A stretch of DNA of 15,825 nt from a virus (lineage: Duplodnaviria > Heunggongvirae > Uroviricota > Caudoviricetes). Made by a program: the position numbers and the translations under genes. Where the stretch lies: the IMG/VR virus record IMGVR_UViG_2778261180_000007. One strand, written 5' to 3'. Shown here piece after piece: positions 2,445 to 15,825 of this stretch; the stretch's first letter is position 1; the number at the start of each line of letters is the position of its first letter. Under the pieces are notes generated by a model. The model did not search any database. It was not told the DNA's origin and was given only the letters and a program-made list of their open reading frames with translations.

Positions 2445-4142
2445 CTATACTTTAAAGAACTTATTTGTCGAAGATAACTCAAGGATCGAGTTACTCATCA
2501 TCATTTTCATGTCCGCATCTTCTGAAAACTTATCACTTAATATTGACACAATATATTGACCATTTATATTATTTGCTTCAAAAAATATATCTCTAATTTG
2601 ATTCACATCGACATCTTCAATGCTATCATGAATAACAAAAGTAGGTCTCTTTAATTTAATCTTATCCACAAACTTAATATAAGCCAAATCAAATGCAGTT
2701 ATTTCACCTTTCTTCTTGCCGCCATTACTGTTTGGTGTAACGCATGATATATCAAAATTACACTTACCTTTATCAACATCAAAGGAAAGATCAAAAATGT
2801 ATCTTTCCCCATATATTTCCTTTGTAAGATCACCAAAAAACTCATTGAAAATCTCGATGTTTTTTTCCAGACCTTGAACTGCTAACTCTATTTCTAAAAG
2901 TAATTTCTCTCGACTATCTTCAAGAGATTTTATAAGGGCATTTGTATCATTAATACGCGAAAGATTAGACTCTATGCTAGCAAGATTTTCACGTAATTCA
3001 GTAAGCTTATTAAATAATTGATTTATAGACTTTAATGTTTCAGGTTCTTTGATTGTTCTAAATAGGGATGATTCTTGTTCATGAAGATCATTGATTTTTT
3101 TATTTACAGTTTCTATTTCTTCTTTTTTCTTTAACAATTCAGATTCTAAAAAACTGATTTTATTCTTAATAATATCATTATGGAACAATACCATTTCTTC
3201 GTAAGTCCTTTTAAGTTCCCCATTAAAATAAATCCCCGCAGAATTATATATTTCCATTAAATCATTTTCTACAAGTTGTGTGATATTATTCTTCAAGGAC
3301 AAGATCGATTCTTCGATATTTCTTACTCGCATATTTAAGGAGGCATAGCTCAAAGAATAATCACTGATATTCTTCTGTATTTCTGAAAGCTTTTTTAAGC
3401 TTTCATCATGACTATCTTTAAAATCGAAGTTCTTAATATTTCTTTCCGCCTCTGCAATTTCTTTCTTCAGAGGCTTAATCATTTTTGCTAAAACAGTCTC
3501 TCTATTTGGATTCCTGTATGCGGCAAGATATGTCTTTTGTTTTTTTATCTCTTTGTTAAAATCACCTTTTTTCTTTATCAGAGGTAACCCATTGAACCCA
3601 AATAAAAACAAGTATAATAGATCATAGACATCAGGAGTCGTATTCCCATGTAAGAAATTAAGCGTTTTCTGCATTTTATCATTCGTGTTTCTAATAAATT
3701 TATGCGAAACATTCCTCAGTGATGGCTTATCTGTAGTTAACCCAAACACTGCTTGAGCTATAAATTCAGAATATTGTTTCTTATCTACTTCAACATCATT
3801 TAAAAAATATTTTGAATTTTTATCATCAATAGATATTATACGTGAAACAACTGCCTTTTTATTTTCTACCGTATTGAAATCCAATGAAAATTTCAAAACA
3901 TTATTATTAATTAACGATACAATTTCAGGTATATCTTTTCCAAACTCTGCATCATGATAAATATCATGACCTGATGACATAAATAAATAATCTAAAACAC
4001 GCGATAATGTGGATTTACCTACACTATTGCCGCTATCTTTGCCTGATGTTCTTTTATTTACAATTAGATTCAGACCGTCTTTAAACGTCACCTCTCTTAC
4101 AAGAGAGTCATTTTTTAAAATAATAAGTTTATTGAGCCTCAT
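2445..4142 (-). CDS. ABC-type (SMC/RecF-like) ATPase with long central coiled-coil; candidate defence-system ATPase
   Basis: 565-aa ORF. N-terminal strand-plus-P-loop layout (LNLIVNKRTSGKDSGNSVGKSTL, Walker A lysine K43). About 300 aa of heptad-like K/E/L/N-rich sequence. C-terminal signature-like SNGGKKKG followed by Walker-B-like TFVIHDSIEDVD. Start overlaps the upstream gene by 14 nt; GGTGGA lies upstream of the ATG. Confidence 0.75.
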   Translation of the reverse strand: MRLNKLIILKNDSLVREVTFKDGLNLIVNKRTSGKDSGNSVGKSTLSRVLDYLFMSSGHDIYHDAEFGKDIPEIVSLINNNVLKFSLDFNTVENKKAVVSRIISIDDKNSKYFLNDVEVDKKQYSEFIAQAVFGLTTDKPSLRNVSHKFIRNTNDKMQKTLNFLHGNTTPDVYDLLYLFLFGFNGLPLIKKKGDFNKEIKKQKTYLAAYRNPNRETVLAKMIKPLKKEIAEAERNIKNFDFKDSHDESLKKLSEIQKNISDYSLSYASLNMRVRNIEESILSLKNNITQLVENDLMEIYNSAGIYFNGELKRTYEEMVLFHNDIIKNKISFLESELLKKKEEIETVNKKINDLHEQESSLFRTIKEPETLKSINQLFNKLTELRENLASIESNLSRINDTNALIKSLEDSREKLLLEIELAVQGLEKNIEIFNEFFGDLTKEIYGERYIFDLSFDVDKGKCNFDISCVTPNSNGGKKKGEITAFDLAYIKFVDKIKLKRPTFVIHDSIEDVDVNQIRDIFFEANNINGQYIVSILSDKFSEDADMKMMMSNSILELSSTNKFFKV

Positions 4143-4362
4143 ATACTATTCCACCATTTCCATCTAACTCAATTGCGCCGATTATGAAAAGCCAATCTAA
4201 TGAGTAAAGAAAAAGATCAAACGATAACTCGAAGATAGAATTTACTAAATCATACAATCGAGATATTTCAATGACCATTGAATCATTACTTTGAAAGATC
4301 CCAAGCACTACACTTCCAATATATACAGGATTTGCTTTTGGATCCGTATCAATTGTAATCAT
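4129..4362 (-). CDS. hypothetical small protein (77 aa) with hydrophobic C-terminal half; operon member
   Basis: ORF preceded by GGAG with 8-nt spacing. Overlaps both neighbours by 14 nt, indicating coupled translation. Hydrophobic segment FDLFLYSLDWLFIIGAIEL. No family recognised. Confidence 0.5.
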   Translation of the reverse strand: MITIDTDPKANPVYIGSVVLGIFQSNDSMVIEISRLYDLVNSIFELSFDLFLYSLDWLFIIGAIELDGNGGIVYEAQ

Positions 4363-4897
4363 TTGGATTCTCCAGCACTATACATTCGATAATAGCATAG
4401 CTAACAATCATACGAATGCCATAATCAATATCTTCCTGTAAAAACTCTGAATCTAAATTAGAACACGAACTAACTGTTTCTTGAGCAGCTCTAATAACAT
4501 CATCTATAATATTATCCGAGTTTTTCCTTATGAGTTCAATGTTAAATGGTTTCTCATAAAGACCATATAATCCCAATGCAGTATTATAATAACCTCTAAA
4601 CTGTCTTTTCAATTTGACACTACCATTTAAAATTATAGCATCAAGTGTTTTTATGGATTCATCAACTAGCAGAGCATCTTCTTTATAAAGTTCAGCTACC
4701 CATCTGTTTCTTTTAAGATCATTGAATTCTATTTTAACATCAATATTTGATGCTATTCTGTTTAAGTTTTGCTCGCTACCAACTGAATTAGAAATAATTT
4801 CAATTAACTTACCAATAACACTGGCTCTTAACATTCTTGGCTGGTTGTTTATATGCACAGGACCAGTATTATTATTGAAATTAACACCAGAACCCAT
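4349..4897 (-). CDS. hypothetical protein (182 aa); operon member
   Basis: ORF preceded by GGGGG. Starts 3 nt after the stop of the upstream small gene. N-terminus carries an NNNTGPVHINN motif that repeats the C-terminus of the upstream protein. No catalytic motif recognised. Confidence 0.65.
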   Translation of the reverse strand: MGSGVNFNNNTGPVHINNQPRMLRASVIGKLIEIISNSVGSEQNLNRIASNIDVKIEFNDLKRNRWVAELYKEDALLVDESIKTLDAIILNGSVKLKRQFRGYYNTALGLYGLYEKPFNIELIRKNSDNIIDDVIRAAQETVSSCSNLDSEFLQEDIDYGIRMIVSYAIIECIVLENPNDYN

Positions 4898-4899
4898 AA

Positions 4900-5172
4900 T
4901 TACCCCCGATTATCAATATTCACAGGACCATTATTATCTTGAAAATATTGAGAACGCGCTCCTTGATTAATGAAGTTTCTATTAGTTGTAATTTTTACAA
5001 TCTGGGAATTAAGATCATTTATTGTAATGTTAAGTTGTTTTATCTCATTATCTTTCTTGGTTACTTGCATAGTCTGATATATTGCTATACATCCAGAGAT
5101 CACCCCAACAATATATCCAAAGGCACTTACATATTCGTTAGCAAGTAGTGATGCAATCATTTGGAGCTCCAT
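4900..5172 (-). CDS. small membrane-anchored protein (90 aa; 86 aa from the alternative ATG at 5160); first gene of the operon
   Basis: Predicted N-terminal transmembrane helix (IASLLANEYVSAFGYIVGVISGCIAIY) followed by a charged helical stretch. The second in-frame ATG at 5160 has a better-placed GGAG. C-terminus NNGPVNIDNRG. Confidence 0.55.
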   Translation of the reverse strand: MELQMIASLLANEYVSAFGYIVGVISGCIAIYQTMQVTKKDNEIKQLNITINDLNSQIVKITTNRNFINQGARSQYFQDNNGPVNIDNRG

Positions 5173-5612: not shown

Positions 5613-6185
5613 TTACACAGACTGACGTGATGCCAGTTGCGCACTTTTACGCGAAAAAATCATGTTCTGCGCAGGGGTGAATTTTTCACGGCTGTCATCC
5701 ACCGAAGCCGCGTCAGGTCTGAATCCAATGGCCGTTAAAATGTCGCTATCCTGTGCGGAATAATTAATTTTTTCACCCTTCGCAAGCCAGGACAGGAGGG
5801 CTTCACGCAGGGCATCTGTGGCACGCTGTATGGCACAGTTTCGGGCAATGGCCGTCAGCTCACTGTAGCCCATCAGCTCCGGTGCCAGTGCCGCCGCCAG
5901 TGCTGTGCCGTGCTGCTGCATAAAATCATTCAGCCGGTCGCGGATGCTGATGTGCTGAACGGCTTCATGCGAACGAATATAACGACCGGCGGCCTGATTC
6001 ACCTGCCATTTTCTGACTTCGATAATATTGCGTAATTCGTCCAGGCGACTGACGTTTCTGCCTTCTCCTGACAGAAGCCGCAGATATTCCTGTTCGGCCG
6101 CAGCCAGCTCATTTTTGCGTTGCAGCCATGCTGCTTTGTTATTCTGACAGGTGTCAAAGGCCTGCTGTAAGGCTGTGCTTTCCAT
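5613..6185 (-). CDS. psu: Psu (polarity suppression / capsid decoration protein), P4-like
   Basis: 190-aa ORF, the size of P4 Psu, last gene of the sid-delta-psu array next to cos. Sequence MESTALQQAFDTCQNN... recognised as Psu-like. Confidence 0.85.
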   Translation of the reverse strand: MESTALQQAFDTCQNNKAAWLQRKNELAAAEQEYLRLLSGEGRNVSRLDELRNIIEVRKWQVNQAAGRYIRSHEAVQHISIRDRLNDFMQQHGTALAAALAPELMGYSELTAIARNCAIQRATDALREALLSWLAKGEKINYSAQDSDILTAIGFRPDAASVDDSREKFTPAQNMIFSRKSAQLASRQSV

Positions 6186-6258
6186 CGTTATCTCTTTCTC
6201 ATCATGCTGAAGAATAAAAATACGGTGTGCGGCGACGGCCGGTGTTAACCGGCAGCCC

Positions 6259-6759
6259 TCATTCCAGACGCAGCGAATATGATTGTGTTTTTAACCGTAC
6301 TGGCGGCAGTTCCTGTTTTTCATGCAGGCTTTCTGCAAGCTCGTCCGGCGTGACCGGGCGGACAATGAAGCGGTTGATGGTCTGAAGCGTTTTAAACACC
6401 AGACCACAGCCCGGATCCGTGCACACATAAAAACGCTCGGTGACTTCCTGAGACAGACGCCGCGATGTTCTTGACAGTGCAAGGCCTTTACATCTCCGAC
6501 AACAATATCCGGTAACAAGCATTCTTTTCGGGCGTTTCATACTGCCGGAGGCTGACGTCAGTGAATCGCGGTATCTCTGTTTGCCTGAAATGTATTCCAT
6601 TCCTGAATCTTTACTGTCAGAGAAAAAGCTTTCACTCGCTTCAAATGTCGCAGAGCAATAAATATTCCGGCACTGTGCAATCATTATCTTGGTGCCATCG
6701 TCCATGAAATGTGCGCGACGGGTGTGAGCAACATGTCCACACGACGGGCAGTAAATCAT
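6259..6759 (-). CDS. delta: Delta, Ogr/Delta-family zinc-finger late-gene activator (tandem Ogr-like repeats)
   Basis: 166-aa ORF with two Ogr-like units, each carrying CPxCGH...C-x-N-x-x-C(S)ATF-type Cys motifs (MIYCPSCGHVAHTRR...QCRNIYCSATF and ...CRRCKG...CTDPGCGLVF). ATGA overlap with the sid stop. Confidence 0.85.
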   Translation of the reverse strand: MIYCPSCGHVAHTRRAHFMDDGTKIMIAQCRNIYCSATFEASESFFSDSKDSGMEYISGKQRYRDSLTSASGSMKRPKRMLVTGYCCRRCKGLALSRTSRRLSQEVTERFYVCTDPGCGLVFKTLQTINRFIVRPVTPDELAESLHEKQELPPVRLKTQSYSLRLE

Positions 6760-7490
6760 GACAGCAGTCCTCTGGCCTTAAGCTCTGCTCCCTGCTGGTC
6801 TATTTTGTCCTGCCACACCTTGCGCTGTGCCGGTGTGCCTGCCACCTCATAATCCATGTGCGGGAGTGTTGCCGCTGACAGTCCGGTCAGCCGGAGAACC
6901 GGCTCACCGGTGAGGCTGATTTGCATCTGTTTTATTTTCTGTTCCAGCGATGATTTCACCTGCTGCATGACAGCCTTTTCCGGTGCGACGTAGCCCTGAT
7001 GGCCGGTGGTGTTGGCGAGCGGATTTTCCTGTACCAGGATGCTCAGATGCATTGCCCGGACAAGCACCTCACAGGTTTCATTCAGGGCGTGTTCCAGCTC
7101 ATGCTCTGCATACAGACTCAGAAGGTGATGATGTGCCTTCCGGTAGGCGGTGGCCGTGCTGTCACACGCCCCTTTCAGGCGTTCACGTTCAAAATTCAGC
7201 ACCACGGCCAGATTGTCATATTCCTGTACCAGCTCCCGGCGTGCCACGCGCTCAATGTGGCGCTGTTTCAGCTCGTCGCTCAGGACACCACCGGCTGCAC
7301 GAAAGGCCGTGCGCCAGTCGTCAGCGTCGTTTCCGTCGGCCTGCGCCAGCGCATTTTTTTCCTGCTCTGCCCGTTCAATGGCCGTGACGGTCTCATCCAT
7401 CAGGCGGGCGTTCTCAAGATGGGCGGCTCTGGCCTTTTCCAGTTGTGCCAGCGCGGGTTGCAGATATTCAGGGATGGTGTTGTCAGACAT
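6756..7490 (-). CDS. sid: Sid (capsid size determination, external scaffold), P4-like
   Basis: 244 aa from the ATG at 7490, which is preceded by AGGAG (MSDNTIPEYLQPALAQ...). The ORF track's earlier ATG at 7556 lacks a Shine-Dalgarno and would overlap the promoter region. Confidence 0.8.
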   Translation of the reverse strand: MSDNTIPEYLQPALAQLEKARAAHLENARLMDETVTAIERAEQEKNALAQADGNDADDWRTAFRAAGGVLSDELKQRHIERVARRELVQEYDNLAVVLNFERERLKGACDSTATAYRKAHHHLLSLYAEHELEHALNETCEVLVRAMHLSILVQENPLANTTGHQGYVAPEKAVMQQVKSSLEQKIKQMQISLTGEPVLRLTGLSAATLPHMDYEVAGTPAQRKVWQDKIDQQGAELKARGLLS

Positions 7491-7562
7491 TTTCCGGCTC
7501 CTCGTCACTTCAGGTTGAGAAAATTGTGACGTACACCGGACAACAACACGACGCATTGCAGA

Positions 7563-7763: not shown

Positions 7764-7922
7764 CGTTGATGGGCTTTTTGTGCTGTTTATTACTGTTTGT
7801 TTTTATTAATTCGCCGGGAATGAATAAGAAAAAACGATTTGTATTTCACTATAAAAATTACGAATTGCTTTAAGTGGCTTTAAATGACTTTAAGTGGAGA
7901 TGAACAAAAAACACACAAGCAT

Positions 7923-7940
7923 TGTAAGGCTGCCGGAACA
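7923..7940 (+). promoter_or_regulatory. candidate Delta-dependent late-left promoter activator site (TGT-N12-ACA) upstream of vis
   Basis: TGTAAGGCTGCCGGAACA. Centre is about 111 bp upstream of the vis ATG, and about 395 bp upstream of the putative early promoter. Confidence 0.3.
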
Positions 7941-8042
7941 AATCCCCCCTGTTGCGTCTGCTGAAAATATTCACAAAATAAAACGCTACCCGAAGCCGGA
8001 CGGACTTATCCGGTGCTGTATGGACATTAACGAGGTAGCCCG

Positions 8043-8309
8043 ATGCAAGCTGTTTTTTCTTCCCCGTCTCCTGCCCCTGTGACGCCACTGATGCCGCTGC
8101 CGGACATCACACAGGAGCGTTTTTTACGTCTGCCGGAAGTGATGCACCTGTGCGGCCTGTCACGCTCGACCATCTATGAACTCATCCGTAAGGGGGAATT
8201 TCCGCCGCAGGTGAGTCTTGGCGGTAAAAATGTGGCCTGGCTGCACTCTGAAGTCACCGCATGGATGGCCGGCCGCATTGCCGGACGCAAACGGGGGTAT
8301 GACGCATGA
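8043..8309 (+). CDS. vis: Vis/AlpA-family DNA-binding regulator (excision and late-transcription control)
   Basis: 88-aa ORF, the size of P4 orf88/Vis. AlpA-type helix-turn-helix core [48 protein letters not shown] lies 7 nt upstream of the ATG. Confidence 0.8.
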
Positions 8310-8896
8310 TGATGCCCGCTCTGCAAAAACTCCCTTTTTCTGGCTTGCCTTTTTCCGGCATTTGCGGATATAGTTTTTCCGTTGCCGCAAAATCGGCAGC
8401 CGGGCGTGAGAACCCGTGTAACTCGAAGGCGACATATGACGCGCCATGCGTCTTTTTTTGTGTCGCAATCAACGCCACAGAGCGCCAGATTATGGTGTGG
8501 CGTGTGGTTTGCCGTGCAGGTATGATCCTGTTCGCAATCGCATGTTATGCCACTGAGTCAATGGTAGCTCAGGCGGGGCAGCCTCCGGGCTGGCCGGTAT
8601 TCTTCGAGGCCGGTATTCTCACCCCCGTCTGGGCTATCGCCATCGAGCGTGAGAACTCCGGCGATAGCAGTTATTTGCTACTCGAAGGAGGCTGCCTTAT
8701 GGCTACAACCCTTACCCCCTCACACCCTGAATTTGTCTTTGTGTTTGCGGCTGTCCGTCGCGCAGACCGTCATCCCCGTATCTGTATGCTTCGCACCGTC
8801 GCCGGTGATGAACGCAGTGCCCGCCGTTCCCTTGTCCGTGACTATGTGCTCTCCCTTGCTGCCCGTCTGCCGGTGGTGGAGGTGTCCCGTGCGTAA
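8306..8896 (+). CDS. eta: eta-like long ORF (194-196 aa, three consecutive ATGs) enclosing kil and spanning the immunity region
   Basis: Open frame from an ATGATGATG start that overlaps the vis stop (ATGA). Matches my recollection of P4 eta: about 197 codons, three candidate start codons, kil nested in the same frame at the 3' end. Coding status itself is uncertain. Confidence 0.4.
8345..8374 (+). promoter_or_regulatory. candidate early promoter (PLE-like)
   Basis: TTGCCT (8345-8350), 18-bp spacer, TATAGT (8369-8374); alternative -10 GATATA with 16-bp spacer. Lies just upstream of seqA. Confidence 0.3.
8406..8687 (+). promoter_or_regulatory. P4-type RNA immunity region: seqA (8406-8428), seqB within a candidate CI RNA (8602-8622), seqC (8649-8687)
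   Basis: seqA GTGAGAA...CTCGAAG and seqC GTGAGAA...CTCGAAG are each complementary to seqB CTTCGAG...TTCTCAC (reverse complement GTGAGAAtaccggcCTCGAAG). seqC runs into the GGAGG Shine-Dalgarno of kil. Confidence 0.45.
8699..8896 (+). CDS. kil: Kil-like small protein (65 aa)
   Basis: ATG at 8699 preceded by GGAGG that overlaps seqC. 65 codons, the size I recall for P4 Kil. Shares frame and stop with eta. Confidence 0.5.
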
Positions 8897-9176
8897 TAAA
8901 AAAGCCCCTCAGACCGTCTCAGCACGTCATGACGCCCGTGAACACCTCAGCATTGAGGCTTACCATAAGCTCAACCGCGCCAGCGCCGTATCCCAGTTTG
9001 TTGGGGGTGATTTGATTCACCGTGAACTCTCCGGCCTGCATCAGCTCTACATTCCGCATATTTTCAGCTACCTGAATGAAGATATTGATTTTGTGCTGAA
9101 TGAGCTGAAAGCCAAAGGCCTGTGCCGCGATTTTCTCGCCCAGCAGAAAGACCGGGGAGACAGGACGCATGTTTGA
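8889..9176 (+). CDS. Eps-like protein (95 aa), candidate helper-derepression factor
   Basis: GTG start at 8889 preceded by GGAGG and overlapping the kil stop. Stop overlaps the start of the orf151-like gene. Assignment is by position and size relative to P4 epsilon. The ORF track's longer form (from 8649) lies in the immunity region. Confidence 0.5.
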
Positions 9177-9624
9177 TTTTCCCCAGCCCGGTGAGATTTA
9201 CCGTTCTGCCGGTTTTCCCGATGTGGCCGTAGTCGGCATTCTGGAAGACGGTATTCCGTGGGAAATGCCGTACCGCTGCCCGGACATTGTCTGGAACCCG
9301 TACCGCCGTAAATTCAGTATTCTTGTGCGTATCCTCGCCGACGGGCGCACCACAGACATCCCGCTGGGGCGTTTTCTGCGGGAATTTACCTGTGACCGTC
9401 CTGACCTGTTTAAACGCAGCCCCGTAAACCGGCATGCGGTACTGAAAGAAATGGCCGGAGACCCGGAATTACAGAAATGGCGGGAGAAATATCTGGATAT
9501 TTACCCGCAGGAGCCTGTTCCGGTCAGCCGGGCGGCACCGGTGGCGCGGGAATGGCGGGAAATTCCCCGCACGGAGCCTGACCCGGAAATCACCCCGGAT
9601 AACAGTTACCGCAATTATCTGTAA
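9169..9624 (+). CDS. P4 orf151-like hypothetical protein (151 aa)
   Basis: Size and position (between eps and alpha) match P4 orf151. Start overlaps the upstream stop. Confidence 0.7.
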   Translation: MFDFPQPGEIYRSAGFPDVAVVGILEDGIPWEMPYRCPDIVWNPYRRKFSILVRILADGRTTDIPLGRFLREFTCDRPDLFKRSPVNRHAVLKEMAGDPELQKWREKYLDIYPQEPVPVSRAAPVAREWREIPRTEPDPEITPDNSYRNYL

Positions 9625-10094: not shown

Positions 10095-12428
10095 ATGAAA
10101 ATGAACGTAACCGCCACCGTCAGCCATGCACTCGGCCACTGGCCGCGTATTCTCCCGGCGCTGGGGATTCAGGTGCTGAAAAACCGTCATCAGCCCTGTC
10201 CGGTCTGTGGCGGGAGTGACCGCTTCCGTTTTGATGACAGGGAGGGGCGCGGCACCTGGTACTGCAATCAGTGTGGTGCCGGTGACGGCCTGAAACTGGT
10301 TGAAAAGGTGTTTGGTGTTTCCCCGTCCGACGCGGCCGCAAAGGTGGCTGCCGTGACCGGCAGCCTGCCCCCGGCTGACCCGGCAGTGACGGCCGCCGCC
10401 GGTGCTGAAACAGACGCTGCCCGGAAGAACGCCGCCGCACTGGCACAAACCCTGATGGCAAAAACCCGTCCCGGAACCGGTAACGCCTACCTGACCCGCA
10501 AGGGCTTTCCCGGCCGGGAATGCCGGATGCTGACCGGCACACACAGAGCCGGTGGCGTGAGCTGGCGCGCCGGTGACCTTGTGGTGCCACTGTATGACGA
10601 CAGCGGCGAACTGGTTAACCTTCAGTTAATCAGTGCTGACGGCCGTAAGCGCACCCTGAAAGGCGGACAGGTCAGGGGCACCTGTCACATCCTTGAAGGA
10701 CAGAATCAGGCCGGAAAACGTCTGTGGATAGCGGAGGGATACGCGACCGCACTTACCGTGCATCACCTGACCGGTGAAACGGTGATGGTGGCGCTTTCTT
10801 CCGTGAATCTCCTTTCTCTGGCCAGCCTTGCCCGGCAGAAGCATCCGGCCTGTCAGATTGTCCTTGCTGCTGACCGTGACCTCAGCGGTGACGGCCAGAA
10901 AAAAGCCGCCGCAGCCGCAGATGCGTGTGAAGGTGTTGTTGCCCTGCCGCCGGTCTTCGGTGACTGGAATGATGCCTTCACGCAGTACGGCGGGGAAGCC
11001 ACCCGTAAGGCCATTTATGATGCCATCCGGCCACCGGCTGAAAGCCCGTTCGACACCATGAGCGAAGCGGAGTTTTCCGCCATGAGTACCAGCGAAAAGG
11101 CCATGCGTATCTATGAGCATTACGGCGAGGCGCTCGCGGTTGATGCCAACGGCCAGCTTCTGTCCCGTTATGAAAATGGTGTCTGGAAGGTGCTGCCACC
11201 ACAGGACTTTGCCCGGGATGTGGCCGGGCTGTTTCAGCGGCTGCGCGCGCCGTTCTCCTCCGGGAAGGTGGCCTCCGTGGTGGACACCCTGAAGCTGATT
11301 ATTCCGCAGCAGGAAGCCCCCTCCCGCCGCCTGATTGGCTTTCGTAACGGCGTGCTCGACACGCAGAACGGCACGTTCCACCCGCACAGTCCGTCACACT
11401 GGATGCGCACCCTGTGCGATGTGGATTTCACCCCACCGGTGGAAGGGGAAACGCTGGAAACCCACGCCCCCGCGTTCTGGCGCTGGCTTGACCGTGCCGC
11501 CGGTGGCCGTGCGGAAAAACGCGACGTGATTCTGGCCGCACTGTTTATGGTGCTGGCAAACCGCTATGACTGGCAGCTCTTTCTGGAGGTGACCGGTCCC
11601 GGCGGAAGCGGCAAAAGTATCATGGCCGAAATAGCCACCCTGCTGGCCGGGGAGGATAACGCCACGTCGGCCACCATTGAGACGCTGGAATCCCCGCGTG
11701 AACGTGCCGCGTTAACTGGCTTCTCACTGATACGCCTGCCGGACCAGGAAAAATGGAGCGGCGACGGAGCCGGACTCAAGGCCATCACCGGCGGCGATGC
11801 AGTGTCCGTTGACCCGAAATACCGGGATGCGTACTCCACGCACATCCCGGCGGTGATTCTGGCCGTGAACAATAACCCGATGCGCTTCACCGACCGCAGC
11901 GGCGGCGTGTCACGCCGGCGGGTGATTATTCACTTCCCGGAACAGATAGCCCCGCAGGAGCGCGACCCGCAACTTAAGGACAAAATCACCCGCGAGCTGG
12001 CGGTCATCGTGCGTCACCTGATGCAGAAGTTCAGCGACCCGATGCTCGCCCGGTCACTGCTTCAGTCCCAGCAGAACTCAGACGAGGCACTGAACATCAA
12101 ACGGGATGCCGACCCGACGTTTGATTTTATCGGCTATCTGGAAACCCTGCCGCAGACCAGCGGCATGTATATGGGGAACGCCAGTATCATCCCGCGTAAC
12201 TACCGTAAATACCTCTATCACGCCTATCTGGCCTACATGGAGGCAAACGGCTACCGGAATGTACTCAGTCTGAAAATGTTCGGGCTGGGGCTGCCGGTGA
12301 TGCTGAAGGAATACGGGCTGAATTACGAGAAGCGCCATACCAAACAGGGGATACAGACCAACCTGACGCTGAAAGAGGAAAGCTACGGCGACTGGCTGCC
12401 AAAATGTGACGACCCTGCAACAACCTGA
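10095..12428 (+). CDS. alpha: Alpha: P4-type primase-helicase replication protein
   Basis: 777 aa, the size of P4 alpha. AGGAG Shine-Dalgarno. N-terminal zinc motif CPVCGGSDRFRFDD...CNQCG. Toprim-like EGYATAL and AADRD. Helicase Walker A VTGPGGSGKS. Iteron arrays lie on both sides. Confidence 0.9.
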   Translation: MKMNVTATVSHALGHWPRILPALGIQVLKNRHQPCPVCGGSDRFRFDDREGRGTWYCNQCGAGDGLKLVEKVFGVSPSDAAAKVAAVTGSLPPADPAVTAAAGAETDAARKNAAALAQTLMAKTRPGTGNAYLTRKGFPGRECRMLTGTHRAGGVSWRAGDLVVPLYDDSGELVNLQLISADGRKRTLKGGQVRGTCHILEGQNQAGKRLWIAEGYATALTVHHLTGETVMVALSSVNLLSLASLARQKHPACQIVLAADRDLSGDGQKKAAAAADACEGVVALPPVFGDWNDAFTQYGGEATRKAIYDAIRPPAESPFDTMSEAEFSAMSTSEKAMRIYEHYGEALAVDANGQLLSRYENGVWKVLPPQDFARDVAGLFQRLRAPFSSGKVASVVDTLKLIIPQQEAPSRRLIGFRNGVLDTQNGTFHPHSPSHWMRTLCDVDFTPPVEGETLETHAPAFWRWLDRAAGGRAEKRDVILAALFMVLANRYDWQLFLEVTGPGGSGKSIMAEIATLLAGEDNATSATIETLESPRERAALTGFSLIRLPDQEKWSGDGAGLKAITGGDAVSVDPKYRDAYSTHIPAVILAVNNNPMRFTDRSGGVSRRRVIIHFPEQIAPQERDPQLKDKITRELAVIVRHLMQKFSDPMLARSLLQSQQNSDEALNIKRDADPTFDFIGYLETLPQTSGMYMGNASIIPRNYRKYLYHAYLAYMEANGYRNVLSLKMFGLGLPVMLKEYGLNYEKRHTKQGIQTNLTLKEESYGDWLPKCDDPATT

Positions 12429-12440
12429 CCCTCATGACTC

Positions 12441-12800
12441 ATCTGACCGGCATCTGCCGGTCTTTTTTCATCCCTGAATCCCCCGAAGGTGAACAATCCA
12501 CTGTTCACCCTTCACCGTATATTCACCCGTTATCACACTGAAATTAAAAGAGAAAAATGAAAGGTGAACAGTGTGAACAATCAAATCAAAAAAAACTTTT
12601 TTCTCCCTGTGTGATTTCAGTACGGGGGATTAATCACCGGTATGAGTCACACCGGCAGAATGCCGGAGGTGAAGAATCGAATGTTCACCCTTCACCCATT
12701 ATTCACCACCTATCAAACTGAAATAAAAGGAGAAAAAAGAAAGATGAACAGTGTGAACAGTTCTTCCGAAAAAAAATTTTTTTCCTGTACGATATAGCAT
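12441..12800. repeat. two tandem ~180-bp imperfect direct repeats with TGTTCACC/GGTGAACA iterons and A8/T6-7 tracts; cis-replication-region-like
   Basis: Unit 1: GGTGAACA 12488-12495, TGTTCACC 12502-12509, degenerate copies 12510-12528, GGTGAACA 12563-12570, GTGAACA 12573-12579, A8cT6 12588-12602. Unit 2 repeats this 180 bp later (TGTTCACC 12682-12689, A8T7 12769-12783). Each unit begins with a CCGGCA...TGCCGG hairpin. Confidence 0.65.
12445..12468 (+). terminator. intrinsic terminator of the alpha (left) operon
   Basis: GACCGGCA, loop TC, TGCCGGTC, then TTTTTT, 17 nt after the alpha stop. Confidence 0.55.
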
Positions 12801-12847
12801 CAATCCAAGTAAAAATGCGCTTTCATTTCACATTAACTTACAGCCAT

Positions 12848-12868
12848 TGGTATACGATTAGGTATACA
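12848..12868. repeat. third copy of the 21-bp TTGGTATACGnTTAGGTATAC motif (candidate arm-type site)
   Basis: TTGGTATACGATTAGGTATAC, 54 bp before the attR-like sequence. Confidence 0.4.
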
Positions 12869-12921
12869 CACAAAAACTGAATTAAACAAAATCATTAAAA
12901 ATCAAAGCAATACAATATTTA

Positions 12922-12943
12922 TTCAAACTCCGCCAGCCCACCA
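12922..12943. other. attR-like degenerate copy of the ssrA 3' end (TTCAAACTCCGCCAGCCCACCA)
   Basis: Aligns to the attL core TTCAACTCCCGCCAGCTCCACCA with three single-base indels. Lies immediately beyond the last P4-like feature and before the chromosomal autotransporter gene. Confidence 0.35.
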
Positions 12944-13070
12944 ATCATGATTGGACGGTATAAGGACAACACCAATAAAAACAGGAAGTTAGCAGTCTCA
13001 GCAGGACACCGACCAGACGGTGAAGAGACATAAAAGGATACGCAAAGGAGCCGCGGCTCCTGGTGACATG

Positions 13071-13094
13071 AAAGCCCACAGATGTGGGCTTTTT
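13071..13094. terminator. hairpin with T-tract just 3' of the autotransporter gene (orientation ambiguous)
   Basis: AAAGCCCACA, loop GAT, GTGGGCTTT, then TTT; A-rich on the other side, so possibly bidirectional. Confidence 0.35.
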
Positions 13095-13103
13095 CGTTGA
13101 TGG

Positions 13104-13430
13104 TCAGAACGACCAGTTCACACCAGCTACCCCGTTCCACGGGGATTCCACACCGGCACCATGGCTATACCCCACCCCAAGATGCCCGCTTAACGTACTG
13201 CTGAATGAGGCTTTAATACCTGCCTGGTATATTCCACGTCTGCCCGACAAATCATTGACAAAATTACCGTCACTATTCACTTTCACCCGATTATCATCGA
13301 CAAATTCTTTGCGCACAGCCGCCTTCAGGCAGGGTTCAATTTCCATACCGTTCCCCAGACGCATGTTGTAACTCAGCGTTGCACCCAGTTCACGATATAA
13401 ACTGCGGGTATCGACTGATTTCGATTCCAT
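13104..13430 (-). CDS. autotransporter C-terminal beta-barrel segment (108 aa), in a different frame from the upstream passenger ORF
   Basis: Ends ...GVAGVNWSF with a terminal aromatic residue, typical of outer-membrane beta-barrel C-termini. Separated from the passenger ORF by a stop and a frame change at 13431-13461. Confidence 0.5.
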   Translation of the reverse strand: MESKSVDTRSLYRELGATLSYNMRLGNGMEIEPCLKAAVRKEFVDDNRVKVNSDGNFVNDLSGRRGIYQAGIKASFSSTLSGHLGVGYSHGAGVESPWNGVAGVNWSF

Positions 13431-13458
13431 GCCATTGGATAAATGATATTCAGGGTTA

Positions 13459-15825
13459 TCAGCGGTGAACCCCCGTTAACGATGCATACGGCGTCAGGTT
13501 CCAGTTACCATCGGTAAATCGCATCCCGGTTTCAATGTGACCGCCCAGCCCGTTGCTGCGATAACTGCCGTTGGCGGCTCCACCGCTGCCAACCGTGGAG
13601 TCGCGAGCTTCGGTACCTGCTAATACCAATAAATTACCGCCATTTTCCAGCAACATATTGGTCGCTAAATTGCCGGAAATGGAAAAAGTGCCGTACTGGT
13701 GAGTACCGCTGATTTCAATACCGTTAGCCGTGCTCGTCTGGAGAGCGGCACCGCTGTTCTGGACGATATCTGTCGCTTTGCCATTATCGTTAACTGTCAG
13801 CGTACCGCCTTCATTGATCTTTGTTTTTATTGCCTCTCCGTTAGCTGAAACTGTTTGTATTCCGCCGTCGTTAATCGTTGTCTCATTCGCCACCCCCTCG
13901 ACGATTTGTTCGCCGCCGGTGAGCGTCGTGCCTGTCGCAGTGGCTTTTGTTTTGACGATCTCCCGTCCGCCCGTATTGACCTGTGTTTTGTCAGAAGAGG
14001 TGTCTGACTCCATGGTTAACACGCCGCCATTTGCCAGCAGGATATTGTTCGCCGCACCCTGCTCGATGCTGAACGCGACGCCATCCGCGCGTGTTCCTGT
14101 GACCCGCGTCGCCCTGGTGGTTGCAACCAAAGCGTCCTGGCTACTCTGCTGTATCCCCGTTGCGCTGCCTTTCTCCCGCACATCGAGTGTGCCGCCGTCA
14201 TTAAGCACCGAGTTTTCAGCCAGACCGCCCTCATTAACTACCTGTGAACACCCATTAATAATGGAACCTTCCGCTGTCCCGTTTGCCATAATTTGTTGTA
14301 GGCCAGAGACGATATCGGTATTGATTGCCTTACCATAATTCTGAACGGTTTGCGTGCCACCATTGATGTGTGTTTTCTCTGTTGACCCACCATCAACAAT
14401 TTGTTCACCACTTTCGATATTTGCCTCAGTGGCTAATCCATATACCGTTTGCTTGCCACCTTTGATATTTGCTTTATCAGAAGTGGCACTGGCATATATT
14501 GTTTGGGTGCCAGCACTATTGAGTACAGTGCCAACATCTTTTCCATAAACATCCATTTTGCCGTTGGCATTAATAATCGTATCAACTGCCCGGGAACCAG
14601 TGACGACTGTTAATGAGCCAGCGTTTTCCAGCACTACATTTTTAGCTTCTGAATTCCTGATGTAGAAAGCATCACCATAACTGTTGGTTCCTTCGATAAG
14701 GGTTCCGGAAGTTGTGGAAGCAATTAATGCGCCGCCGGATTGTTGCTCAACATGCTTAGCCTCACCACCGTCCTGAACCTCCAGAACGCCACCATTATTA
14801 AGTCTGGTGGTATCTGTTTTAGCCTCCTTCTGGGCAATCAGCTTACCGCCAGCATCAACGGTAGTATTTTTCGCCGAGGTTTTAGCCACTACCGTCAGTT
14901 CGCCGGTATTTTCCAGCACAACATAATTAGCCTCCCCTCCGGTAATAGTGAAGTGAGAGAGCTTGTTGTATCCTTCAATATCAGTCCCTGCGCCCGTGTT
15001 GGCAACTAAAGCACTGCCCGTCTCCTGGTTAACCCCATGTGCAATACCACCGGTATAGACAATCAGCGAGCCTCCGGCGCTAATATTGCTGCCAGTTGCC
15101 GTACCATCTTTCTCAACAACCTGCCGGCTCCCGGAGGATATAATTGTCGTGTCAGCTTTCCCGCCGCTCTTGATATTTTGCGTTCCGCCGTTGATATTGG
15201 TACCCGTGGCAATACCATGATTATTAATATTCTGTGTACCACCATTGATTATGGTATTGGTCGCGTTTCCGGTAACATCCATTACCCCGCCGTTATCTAT
15301 TCGGGTCGCATCAGCTTTAGCATTCGTTAAAACTGACATTGTTCCTTTATCTTTAATAATCGTCTTGTTTGCCGAACCATATGCGTTTATGTCTAAATGA
15401 CCACCGTTTTCCAGCAACACATTGTCTGCCACGTGATTGTGGATGGAGAATGCACCTTCACTATTCGTACCGCTCACCGTCGTACCGTTAGTGTTTGTTT
15501 TTAAAATTGCACCATCGTGCTGGGTAACATTTGTTGCCGTACCACCACTAACATCAAGCACGCCACCGGAATAAACTTCAATAACATCCGAGGAGCTGGT
15601 GTAATCAACAATTTGCGTACCACCAGAATAGATCTGAGTATTTTTTGCCGTTGACTTATTATTCAGAGACTGAGTTCCACCTTCAATCGTCGTGTCCAGC
15701 GCATGGCTTTCATATACTCTTTGCTCACCGCCATTTTTAATGGTGGTTGTTCCTACTGTGCTCTGTTCAACAGTAACCGGCTCATTTAAACCGTCTGGTC
15801 TGTTTCCTCCGGCTCTACAAAAATA
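13459..15825 (-). CDS. AIDA-I/Ag43-type autotransporter adhesin, passenger region (5'-partial; continues beyond the window end)
   Basis: Reading frame is open from the window edge (15825) down to the stop at 13459-13461. Dozens of G/T/N-rich ~19-aa beta-helix repeats (e.g. INGGTQNI, TIINGGTQ, VLENAGSLTVV). The ORF track's GTG at 15561 is not the true start. Confidence 0.8.
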   Translation of the reverse strand, partial: YFCRAGGNRPDGLNEPVTVEQSTVGTTTIKNGGEQRVYESHALDTTIEGGTQSLNNKSTAKNTQIYSGGTQIVDYTSSSDVIEVYSGGVLDVSGGTATNVTQHDGAILKTNTNGTTVSGTNSEGAFSIHNHVADNVLLENGGHLDINAYGSANKTIIKDKGTMSVLTNAKADATRIDNGGVMDVTGNATNTIINGGTQNINNHGIATGTNINGGTQNIKSGGKADTTIISSGSRQVVEKDGTATGSNISAGGSLIVYTGGIAHGVNQETGSALVANTGAGTDIEGYNKLSHFTITGGEANYVVLENTGELTVVAKTSAKNTTVDAGGKLIAQKEAKTDTTRLNNGGVLEVQDGGEAKHVEQQSGGALIASTTSGTLIEGTNSYGDAFYIRNSEAKNVVLENAGSLTVVTGSRAVDTIINANGKMDVYGKDVGTVLNSAGTQTIYASATSDKANIKGGKQTVYGLATEANIESGEQIVDGGSTEKTHINGGTQTVQNYGKAINTDIVSGLQQIMANGTAEGSIINGCSQVVNEGGLAENSVLNDGGTLDVREKGSATGIQQSSQDALVATTRATRVTGTRADGVAFSIEQGAANNILLANGGVLTMESDTSSDKTQVNTGGREIVKTKATATGTTLTGGEQIVEGVANETTINDGGIQTVSANGEAIKTKINEGGTLTVNDNGKATDIVQNSGAALQTSTANGIEISGTHQYGTFSISGNLATNMLLENGGNLLVLAGTEARDSTVGSGGAANGSYRSNGLGGHIETGMRFTDGNWNLTPYASLTGVHR

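Follow-up and report, generated by a model that had tools for sequence, protein, structure and literature searches.

The lysogeny switch of P4-like satellites is RNA-based and already well known: a small antisense RNA silences the early genes. In phage P4, this RNA (CI) is matured by RNase P and PNPase. Comparable arrangements have been described elsewhere. In the P4 relative phiR73, specificity is set by complementary seqA, seqB and seqC segments, the same concept as in the locus presented here; the immunity specificity determinants of this P4-like retronphage are reportedly the subject of Sabbattini et al. 1996 (Virology 216:389; cited in PMC7567579). The immI region of phages P1 and P7 (c4 RNA, a1b1/a2b2, icd-ant) follows the same logic, with two boxes and two targets, the second of which lies over the ribosome-binding site of an Icd-like gene. 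The Rfam families C4 (RF01695) and c4-a1b1 (RF03163), which form one clan, are common to immI and our locus, but the similarity of the DNA is too low for blastn. In P1, the control falls on the antirepressor gene ant, which follows icd on the downstream side. The linear plasmid-prophages phiKO2 and PY54 match the CI/seqC core of our locus (~8561–8669) at 76–84% identity, but in another context, that of antirepressor control; they are not satellites and lack the eta, vis and alpha neighbours. The CB RNA anti-immunity system of N15 (cited in PMC7567579) is the studied example of C4-type regions in linear plasmid-prophages.

For P4 itself, CI is known to be processed from the leader of PLE transcripts and to pair with seqA and seqC, which leads to premature termination (PMC4825925). 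The P4 eta gene holds an internal constitutive promoter, and Kil is a truncated form of Eta; only transcription from the upstream late promoter yields the full-length Eta, whose translation is coupled to that of the alpA homologue (PMC10111431). In the Salmonella Gifsy-1 IsrK/STnc1160 region, IsrK is a structural homologue of seqA, with a processed RNA downstream (PMC4825925). IsrK activates the translation of its own read-through mRNA, whereas covariation in our locus points to seqA as a target of CI.

The DNA analyzed here (the window; 15,825 nucleotides) is, judged by its sequence, a P4-like satellite prophage of E. coli, situated between ssrA and ypjA. Core genes in P4 order (int, psu, delta, sid, vis/alpA, eps and the alpha primase) were found using open reading frames, Pfam, the P4 annotation and the RefSeq annotation of a 98.6% identical locus. 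All P4 core ORFs (int, psu, delta, sid, vis, eta/kil, eps, orf151, orf106 and alpha) are intact. The immunity region has its order, spacing and sequence in common with phage P4, and the flanking genes are the same, with sid/delta/psu on one side and eps/orf151/orf106/alpha on the other. The initial annotation had read 8306–8896 as a P4-type immunity locus and named alignment to P4 as a check; the region 7900–9300 is 95.6% identical to P4 over 1.4 kb in a nucleotide alignment, and kil and the stretch equivalent to the P4 terminator timm are 100% identical. Compared with P4, the window has a 9-nt in-frame spacer deletion and a +1/−1 indel pair ahead of the kil ATG. The element adjoins ssrA, whereas the integration site of P4 is leuX, and unlike P4, it carries an ABC-3C-type candidate defence system as cargo next to ssrA. 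The region is present in around 1000 of 5426 complete E. coli genomes; E. coli copies number roughly 1200, and near-identical ones are widespread.

We consider it very probable that 8306–8896 (on the plus strand, as are all features described below) is the immunity, or lysogeny-maintenance, module of this P4-like satellite prophage, operating by a mechanism of seven steps. The first four steps can be followed at the sequence level, the last three are carried over from P4 genetics by homology, and homology is the basis for every functional step. The module would decide between the silent and the replicating state of the satellite. The sole departure of the switch from phage P4 would be another "immunity type".

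The module begins at the end of vis (P4 ORF88; 8043–8309), an AlpA-family excisionase/regulator by its ORF, the P4 annotation and Pfam (Phage_AlpA, 74 bits). The vis stop overlaps the start of eta (8306–8896; 196 codons), an ORF that contains PLE, seqA, cI and seqC, ends as kil and matches Pfam Phage_ASH over residues 22–143 with 77.6 bits. The eta start, ATGATGATG, occupies 8306–8314, and its first ATG overlaps the vis stop TGA at 8307–8309. The kil ORF (8699–8896; 65 codons) is nested in frame (8699 − 8306 = 393 = 131 × 3), and a GGAGG at 8687–8691 stands 7 nt before its ATG. It codes for an Icd-like cell-division inhibitor (NCBIfam phage_ICD_like, NF033153, 76 bits) and would be the first gene translated from PLE transcripts. 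The initial annotation had described an ORF of ~196 codons starting with three ATGs on the vis stop and a 65-codon ORF with a strong GGAGG nested in frame within it, and both descriptions are accurate. Its reading of these as P4 eta and kil is borne out by the identity of kil with P4, its Icd-like family and the start on the vis stop, as in P4.

Inside eta lies a PLE-type constitutive promoter (8345–8374; TTGCCT, 18 nt, TATAGT) with a predicted start at approximately 8381. Wherever rows of alignment A2 extend this far, the −35 TTGC and −10 TAYAGT are conserved, and the promoter and a terminator hairpin are found at positions homologous to P4. In step 1, the constitutive PLE would start a transcript at ~8381, downstream of the eta start codon. 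The first part of this transcript is an isrK-like seqA leader (8381–8459), defined by Rfam matches, a terminator scan and a centroid fold. Rfam isrK (RF01394) matches 8381–8458 with 67 bits against a gathering score of 50, and c4-a1b1 (RF03163) matches 8368–8420 with 49.5 bits against 46.7. The leader consists of a hairpin at 8381–8400, a second hairpin at 8401–8416 whose loop holds the a1 box, the b1 box as an unpaired stretch, and a terminator hairpin (8438–8452) followed by a T-run (8453–8459). The centroid fold reproduces the hairpins of the isrK and c4-a1b1 models; the stability of the leader fold is no greater than that of shuffled sequence (z = −0.61). The intrinsic terminator at 8438–8459 between seqA and cI looks canonical, and the production of CI would need read-through.

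The cI gene for the CI antisense RNA spans 8557–8644 and matches the full Rfam C4 model with 74.3 bits against a gathering score of 45. The mature CI is predicted to be ~80 nt long (~8563–8642), with a 16-bp basal stem, two hairpins and a GCCA tail. According to the fold prediction, the stem is tRNA-like and of the acceptor type. The fold has an energy of −48 kcal/mol (z = −5.35), and the stem covaries in related loci. A CI RNA of ~70 nt had been placed within 8570–8650 by the initial annotation; the C4 match is indeed there, and the span and length are corrected slightly by the values above. In step 2, the leader, made up of seqA (a1, b1), the terminator-like hairpin and the CI gene, would have this tRNA-like RNA cut out of it.

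In step 3, CI would present two recognition elements, both of which are part of seqB. The element b′ (TTCTTCGAG; 8600–8608) lies in the 12-nt loop of CI hairpin 2, and a′ (TTCTCAC; 8616–8622) is single-stranded in the fold, between hairpin 2 and the basal stem. With 28 loop variants in related loci, compared with 9 for a′, b′ is on the sequence evidence a hypervariable specificity determinant. An alternative stem-loop in the precursor (8633–8668; inverted repeat I6) pairs 8633–8641 with 8660–8668 and 8645–8647 with 8656–8658, leaving the a2 box in an 8-nt loop. It is 99.3% paired, with 5 of 12 pairs changed on both sides. We infer that this precursor hairpin competes with the base of the CI stem, and it could be a link between CI maturation and target exposure. 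As a separate observation, CI hairpin 1 (8577–8586) has perfect 10-nt complementarity to 8687–8696. We rejected it as an extra anti-Shine–Dalgarno element because hairpin 1 changes (GCTGAC, GGCTTC) without the Shine–Dalgarno region following.

Each target of CI is bipartite and consists of an a box, GTGAGAA, and a b box, CTCGAAGG[A], both complementary to CI. In seqA, the a1 box (8406–8412) is complementary to a′ (8616–8622), and the b1 box (CTCGAAGG; 8422–8429) to the b′ loop (8601–8608), with a spacer of 9 nt between the boxes. In seqC, the spacer between the a2 box (GTGAGAA; 8649–8655) and the b2 box (CTCGAAGGA; 8681–8689) is 25 nt. The repeats seen in the DNA are CGRGCGTGAGAAC at 8401–8413 and 8644–8656, and ACTCGAAGG at 8421–8429 and 8680–8688. 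Within them, CTCGAAG (8422–8428 and 8681–8687) is the exact reverse complement of 8602–8608, and GTGAGAA is that of 8616–8622. The initial annotation had both repeats complementary to the whole of 8602–8622. This is correct for 8602–8608 and 8616–8622, which pair with both repeats, but not for 8609–8615, which forms the 3′ arm of the CI hairpin and is unpaired with the targets. The b2 box overlaps the kil Shine–Dalgarno sequence (GGAGG; 8687–8691), as had also been noted; with one G–U pair allowed, the pairing extends to 8689 and covers G8687, G8688 and A8689. In step 4, nascent PLE transcripts would be bound by b′ and a′ at a1/b1 on the upstream side and at a2/b2 farther downstream, with the b2 pairing covering the kil Shine–Dalgarno sequence. 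The likeness to P4 CI that had been pointed out at the outset agrees with the C4, isrK and c4-a1b1 matches above their gathering scores and with published P4 summaries, which describe the same layout.

The four box matches occurred jointly in 2 of 20,000 mononucleotide shuffles of both target zones. A duplex scan with accessible probes ranked seqA (−23.7 kcal/mol) and the a-box region of seqC (−21.4 kcal/mol) above all other sites in the transcript. Co-folding of full-length CI with seqA or seqC by RNAcofold, which had been suggested as a check, yielded interaction energies no better than those of shuffles. We dropped RNAcofold as a test because loop–loop and loop–linear pairing inside closed hairpins is outside its model, which probably accounts for the lack of significance.

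The pairing was followed through a comparison set of 162 related loci, 156 of which have a CI-like RNA. The 28 b′ loops and 9 a′ segments occur in 49 combinations, and 40–49 a/b types were seen in the Enterobacterales loci compared. Among the 118 unique regions used for the loop test, the own loop matches both of its own targets in 113, whereas foreign loops do so in 211 of 3186 comparisons. The four intermolecular helices are 96–100% paired across the 49 types (a1, 99.7%; b1, 98.2%; a2, 100%; b2, 96.4%), in contrast to 34–53% for slid controls. In each of them, six pairs are changed on both sides (6/7 for a1 and a2, 6/8 for b1 and 6/9 for b2). The exceptions are loci L141 and L096, whose b′ loop fits neither of the targets, and L137 and L151, in which seqA is mismatched. 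Loss of the complementarity in relatives would have spoken against the initial reading; it is kept through many compensatory changes. The comparative data amount to a natural compensatory-mutagenesis series, and the P4 pairing model is confirmed by them well outside E. coli.

These data bear on the role of seqA. The seqA leader (8381–8458) might be mainly an independent, terminated sRNA like Salmonella IsrK, activating the translation of the read-through transcript in trans. The isrK match of 67 bits includes the terminator hairpin and the T-run, and IsrK has such a dual role, with seqA being called its structural homologue (PMC4825925). IsrK-like elements of S. Typhi P4-like prophages were also required in TraDIS (PMC3632133). 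However, a1/b1 covary with CI exactly like a2/b2, which shows that CI–seqA pairing is under selection, and a repeat search revealed no complementarity between seqA and the kil leader except via CI. We consider an sRNA as the main function of seqA improbable and keep to seqA as a CI target; the two roles are mutually compatible.

The a box of the window is that of phage P4, and the differences between the two are concentrated in the b boxes, those of seqA, seqB and seqC alike. P4 has TTCACAGG/CCTGTGAA, whereas the window has CTCGAAGG/TCTTCGAG; three of the eight target positions differ in seqA and in seqC, together with four CI loop positions, and these changes compensate each other. Since the b box is changed compensatorily in all three sites, the predicted immunity specificity of the element is at least partly distinct from that of P4. 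In step 7, specificity would be set by the a and b boxes, the a box as in P4 and the b box different in all three sites. The boxes would determine which related satellites the element excludes. P4-like satellite immunity may be written in a combinatorial two-box code of at least 9 a types and 28 b loops; if this is true, there would be many mutually non-immune groups across Enterobacterales.

Many genomic P4-like elements are defective, and the locus could be an inactive relic of such a prophage, its complementarity inherited from a P4-like ancestor and unused. Downstream of alpha, we found no repeat of the ssrA 3′ end of at least 12 nt that would qualify as attR, only 8-mers, as a relic might have it. 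Yet no P4 core ORF is disrupted, the match is perfect at all four boxes, and near-identical copies are widespread in E. coli genomes. The coordinated change of the b box in three places relative to P4 requires selection after divergence. A relic is thus very improbable in our estimate, and we retain the immunity module.

The cloned P4 timm fragment corresponds to X51522 8365–8209 (PMC3177188). It maps to L001 2309–2465, that is, it starts at the kil ATG, and the window is identical to P4 there. By this homology, the stretch equivalent to the Rho-dependent terminator timm is 8699–8855. In step 5, b2 pairing over the kil Shine–Dalgarno sequence would leave kil untranslated, and the resulting ribosome-free RNA would let Rho terminate at timm inside kil, keeping eps, orf151, orf106 and the primase alpha off.

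The long ORF behaves differently from kil. The eta frame is open in 101 of the 111 unique related regions in the frame test, the other two frames in 7 and 1, and frame-restoring indels sit just ahead of the kil ATG. In the eta-only part, the spacer entropy per codon position is flat (1.08/1.02/1.03), and the polymorphic sites in close relatives are distributed as 23/17/22. For kil in the same sequences, the values are 0.35/0.32/0.85 and 6/2/17, a third-codon-position bias. A frame that is kept open without such a bias, next to a biased kil, suggests that selection acts on translation through the region rather than on the protein sequence. The 131 codons that belong to eta alone may form a "translated spacer", whose frame purifying selection and frame-restoring indels would keep open all the way from the vis stop, past the RNA elements and over timm, while its amino-acid sequence is unconstrained.

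The same ORF can be read as coding for a functional Ash or "Bro network" protein, in which the N-terminal 131 residues matter and the frame is conserved for its product. The Phage_ASH match of 77.6 bits covers the whole Pfam model, the ORF is conserved across genera, and eta has been placed among Bro-network genes (PMC10111431). This is difficult to reconcile with the flat variability over codon positions. Moreover, "Eta" is conserved where the RNA elements lie, and the long ORF of Pectobacterium and Dickeya, although it extends over the entire region, is out of frame with kil. The Pfam family may itself largely reflect the translation of a conserved RNA locus. We regard a functional Eta protein as rather unlikely and favor the translated spacer. 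Its function would then be ribosome passage (anti-termination, immunity bypass), and the Phage_ASH signal in P4-like elements would largely mirror the embedded RNA genes.

The translated eta spacer, the two-box code and the precursor hairpin linking CI maturation to target exposure had no description in the literature searched. That all three hold together is a tentative proposal, for which we see a reasonable chance but would not expect it on balance. In RefSeq, the entire 196-codon ORF goes under the name "host cell division inhibitor Icd-like protein", and the RNA elements are left unannotated; the regulatory content of the region is therefore invisible in the annotation.

The eta ATG lies upstream of the PLE −10 element (8369–8374). 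Because eta starts ahead of the internal PLE, on the vis stop, it can be encoded only by transcripts that come from upstream. This upholds the earlier suggestion that the long ORF is translated only from the late promoter, and the description of P4 is the same (PMC10111431). In step 6, transcripts from the upstream late promoter would carry the start codon of eta with its coupling to the vis stop. Translation of eta would take ribosomes across seqA, cI, seqC and kil, and would make these transcripts insensitive to immunity. Two pattern matches to the activator dyad TGT-N12-ACA were considered. The one at 8417–8434, inside seqA, was rejected as a Delta/Ogr site; it has no counterpart in P4, overlaps the variable b box and was judged a chance match. 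The other, at 7923–7940 and ~395 nt upstream of the predicted PLE start, is, by the pattern of P2/P4 late promoters, a candidate for the activator site of the late promoter PLL.

The window is E. coli DNA, with 98.6% identity along its full length to strain 14EC029, and it harbors a complete P4-like satellite prophage. The genes smpB and ssrA (tmRNA, 698–1060) lie ahead of the satellite, and the adhesin gene ypjA follows it. Within the satellite, the integrase (1245–2444) is followed by a cargo block (2445–5172, minus strand), psu, delta and sid (5613–7556, minus strand), vis (8043–8309, with an AlpA match), eta/kil (8306–8896), eps (8889–9176, with a Derepression family match), orf151, orf106 and the alpha primase (10095–12428). 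Phage P4 aligns to the entire stretch 7900–9300 at 95.6% identity, with the same annotated gene order. The initial annotation had proposed P4-type RNA-based immunity at 8306–8896, and the P4 alignment, the Rfam families and the pairing described below all bear this out. The locus is the P4 immunity module as known from textbooks, and the prophage is one of many P4-like ones in E. coli; the immunity region was found in 1005 of 5426 complete E. coli genomes. Rfam already includes the RNA families, and published work covers both the mechanism and the occurrence of alternative specificities. The two-box code and the eta comparisons reported here are modest extensions to this known picture.

The sequence details in the initial annotation proved correct throughout. 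ORF calls recovered the proposed arrangement of a 65-codon ORF (8699–8896, kil) nested in frame in a 196-codon ORF (8306–8896, eta). The strong kil Shine–Dalgarno sequence that had been noted is GGAGG at 8687–8691, 7 nt ahead of the ATG. The eta start overlaps the vis stop as claimed, with ATGATGATG at 8306–8314 lying over the TGA at 8307–8309. Kil is assigned to the Icd-like family at 76 bits, and the Icd-like part of the 196-codon ORF is its last 65 codons only. In the annotated E. coli locus L163 (L numbers denote related loci collected for comparison), RefSeq calls the entire 196-codon ORF a "host cell division inhibitor Icd-like protein" and leaves the RNA genes of this region unannotated. 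A predicted sigma-70-type promoter, PLE (8345–8374; TTGCCT, 18 nt, TATAGT), sits just 5′ of the isrK-like leader and is kept in relatives. It is downstream of the eta ATG, and therefore PLE transcripts cannot encode full-length Eta.

Three Rfam families score above their gathering scores in the immunity region: the C4 antisense RNA, the family of P4 CI (8557–8644, 74.3 bits), isrK (8381–8458, 67 bits), which is a structural homologue of P4 seqA (PMC4825925, PMC3632133), and c4-a1b1 (8368–8420). The CI RNA folds at −48 kcal/mol (z = −5.35) into a 16-bp basal stem with two hairpins and a GCCA end. In the predicted fold, hairpin 2 carries the b′ element in its 12-nt loop, and the single-stranded stretch after this hairpin contains a′. 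The centroid fold of the leader matches the isrK model: the 8-nt loop CGUGAGAA holds a1, and b1 is unpaired. Between seqA and the CI gene, all relatives conserve a terminator-like hairpin followed by seven T (8438–8459), so CI would be made from PLE by read-through only. The model used here does not explain the balance between termination at this hairpin and CI production. Further 3′, a precursor stem pairs 8633–8641 with 8660–8668 and 8645–8647 with 8656–8658, and it puts a2 in an 8-nt loop identical to that of a1. This stem and the CI basal stem are mutually exclusive because both use the 3′ strand of the CI stem. Across 49 immunity types the precursor stem is 99.3% paired, and 5 of its 12 pairs are changed on both sides, among them 8639/8662, which is outside the CI stem; some of this covariation may represent few evolutionary events. 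The stem may serve in processing or in presenting the target.

Two direct repeats complementary to one CI segment had been reported, and a repeat finder recovered both, together with the complements at 8602–8608 and 8616–8622. The repeats are CGRGCGTGAGAAC (8401–8413 and 8644–8656) and ACTCGAAGG (8421–8429 and 8680–8688). They are bipartite: the a box reads GTGAGAA and the b box CTCGAAGG(A), with spacers of 9 nt in seqA and 25 nt in seqC; in CI, the complements of the two boxes are split by the 3′ arm of a hairpin. Shuffling the target zones 20,000 times gave all four box matches jointly in 2 cases. The second repeat does overlap the kil Shine–Dalgarno sequence: with one G–U pair allowed, the b2 duplex reaches 8689 and takes in three of its bases. 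Hairpin 1 of CI (8577–8586, GGCAGCCUCC) is also perfectly complementary to the kil Shine–Dalgarno region (8687–8696, GGAGGCUGCC). We rejected this pairing as a required interaction on the grounds that it shows no covariation across relatives, and the complementarity is probably dispensable.

In the pairwise alignment with P4, kil is identical and, apart from the b′ loop, nearly all CI scaffold positions are too. The cloned Rho-dependent terminator of P4, timm (X51522 8365–8209; PMC3177188), corresponds exactly to the 157 nt that begin at the kil ATG, and the matching window sequence (8699–8855) is identical to P4. A 9-nt deletion in the eta spacer and a +1/−1 indel pair just 5′ of the kil ATG both preserve the eta frame. 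The differences concentrate in the b box of seqA, CI and seqC. The a box is common to both elements, whereas the b box in seqA and seqC is TTCACAGG in P4 and CTCGAAGG in the window, and that in CI is CCTGTGAA and TCTTCGAG, respectively. Since all three sites have changed, the element keeps its own pairing and is expected to pair poorly with the b boxes of P4 targets. The comparison thus predicts an immunity specificity different from that of P4. Altered specificity reportedly has a precedent in phiR73, in work by Sabbattini et al. in 1996.

We used the alpha primase to gather 80 loci, taking one genome per species across more than 30 genera of Enterobacterales, and Kil to gather 80 further loci from IMG/VR; P4 and the annotated E. 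coli locus bring the total to 162. A CI-like RNA is at the expected place in 156 of them. Its scaffold is conserved; the hypervariable parts are the loop and the single-stranded stretch, with 28 b′ loops and 9 a′ segments occurring in 49 combinations. In 113 of 118 unique regions, the b′ loop finds 8 or more contiguous pairs in each of the two target zones of its own locus, as against 211 of 3186 comparisons with loops swapped in from other loci; for the a box the figures are 117/118 (own) and 77/944 (other locus). Pairs were counted on an alignment with one sequence per immunity type (A2). The four intermolecular helices are paired at 99.7%, 98.2%, 100% and 96.4%, each with 6 pairs changed on both sides, and sliding the partner by 1–3 columns lowers pairing to 34–53%. 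Conservation in related elements, a check that the initial annotation had set, is therefore seen at the sequence level: the complementarity is maintained through many independent compensatory changes. Two IMG/VR loci (L141, L096) have a CI b′ loop, TATCCTATGACG, that fits the b box of neither seqA nor seqC, together with stop codons in the eta frame; they may have decayed or may be variants that escape immunity. In L137 and L151, the seqA type differs from that of the locus's own CI, which suggests that they are recombinants.

Of 111 unique regions, 101 have no stop in the eta/kil frame over the 330 nt that precede the kil ATG, as against 7 and 1 that are open in the two alternative frames; composition alone predicts 3.75 stops per frame. 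The eta-only part has a Pfam Phage_ASH match, and Eta could on this basis be a functional Ash-domain protein. Its variability shows no codon periodicity: mean column entropy at codon positions 1/2/3 is 0.64/0.68/0.62 before PLE, 1.08/1.02/1.03 in the eta spacer and 0.87/0.92/0.83 in seqC, compared with 0.35/0.32/0.85 in kil. A set of 64 close relatives has 23/17/22 polymorphic sites at these codon positions in the eta-only part and 6/2/17 in kil. In Pectobacterium/Dickeya loci (L060, L061, L064, L066–L069), a long eta-like ORF of 242–251 aa uses a frame other than that of kil; it starts at the stop of the upstream gene (ATGA overlap) and spans seqA, CI, seqC and all of kil. The simplest reading, we infer, is that selection acts on an open, translatable path and not on the protein sequence. 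Such selection would agree with published work in which translation is proposed to prevent termination.

The sequence itself shows the promoter position, the RNA fold, the two-box pairing with both targets, the overlap with the kil ribosome-binding site, the identity of the timm equivalent and the geometry of the eta start. The functional steps are taken from P4 genetics as summarized in PMC4825925, PMC10111431 and PMC3177188. By analogy, CI would be cut from the PLE leader and would pair with seqA and seqC on nascent transcripts. With kil left untranslated, Rho would terminate at timm, and the replication genes would be off. Transcripts from the upstream late promoter would include the eta start, and through translation of eta they would become insensitive to immunity. 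A candidate activator dyad (7923–7940) precedes the predicted PLE start by about 395 nt.

A direct repeat of the ssrA 3′ end of at least 12 nt was not found downstream of alpha (1061–1244 against 12429–13460), and the right-hand attachment site is therefore not evident. In another E. coli strain, an immunity region with 99.8% identity lies at a tRNA-Thr site, and the cargo there differs (an ATP-dependent nuclease and a UvrD-like helicase). In the window, the cargo block occupies the variable hotspot of P4 and has four ORFs: a DUF2326 ABC/SMC-like ATPase of 565 aa (PADLOC PDC-M68B, 154 bits, also LmuB-like), an ABC-3C middle component MC6 of 77 aa, a 182-aa ORF that matches CTD10 weakly and a coiled-coil ORF of 90 aa. 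Together, these look like a candidate ABC-three-component anti-phage system.
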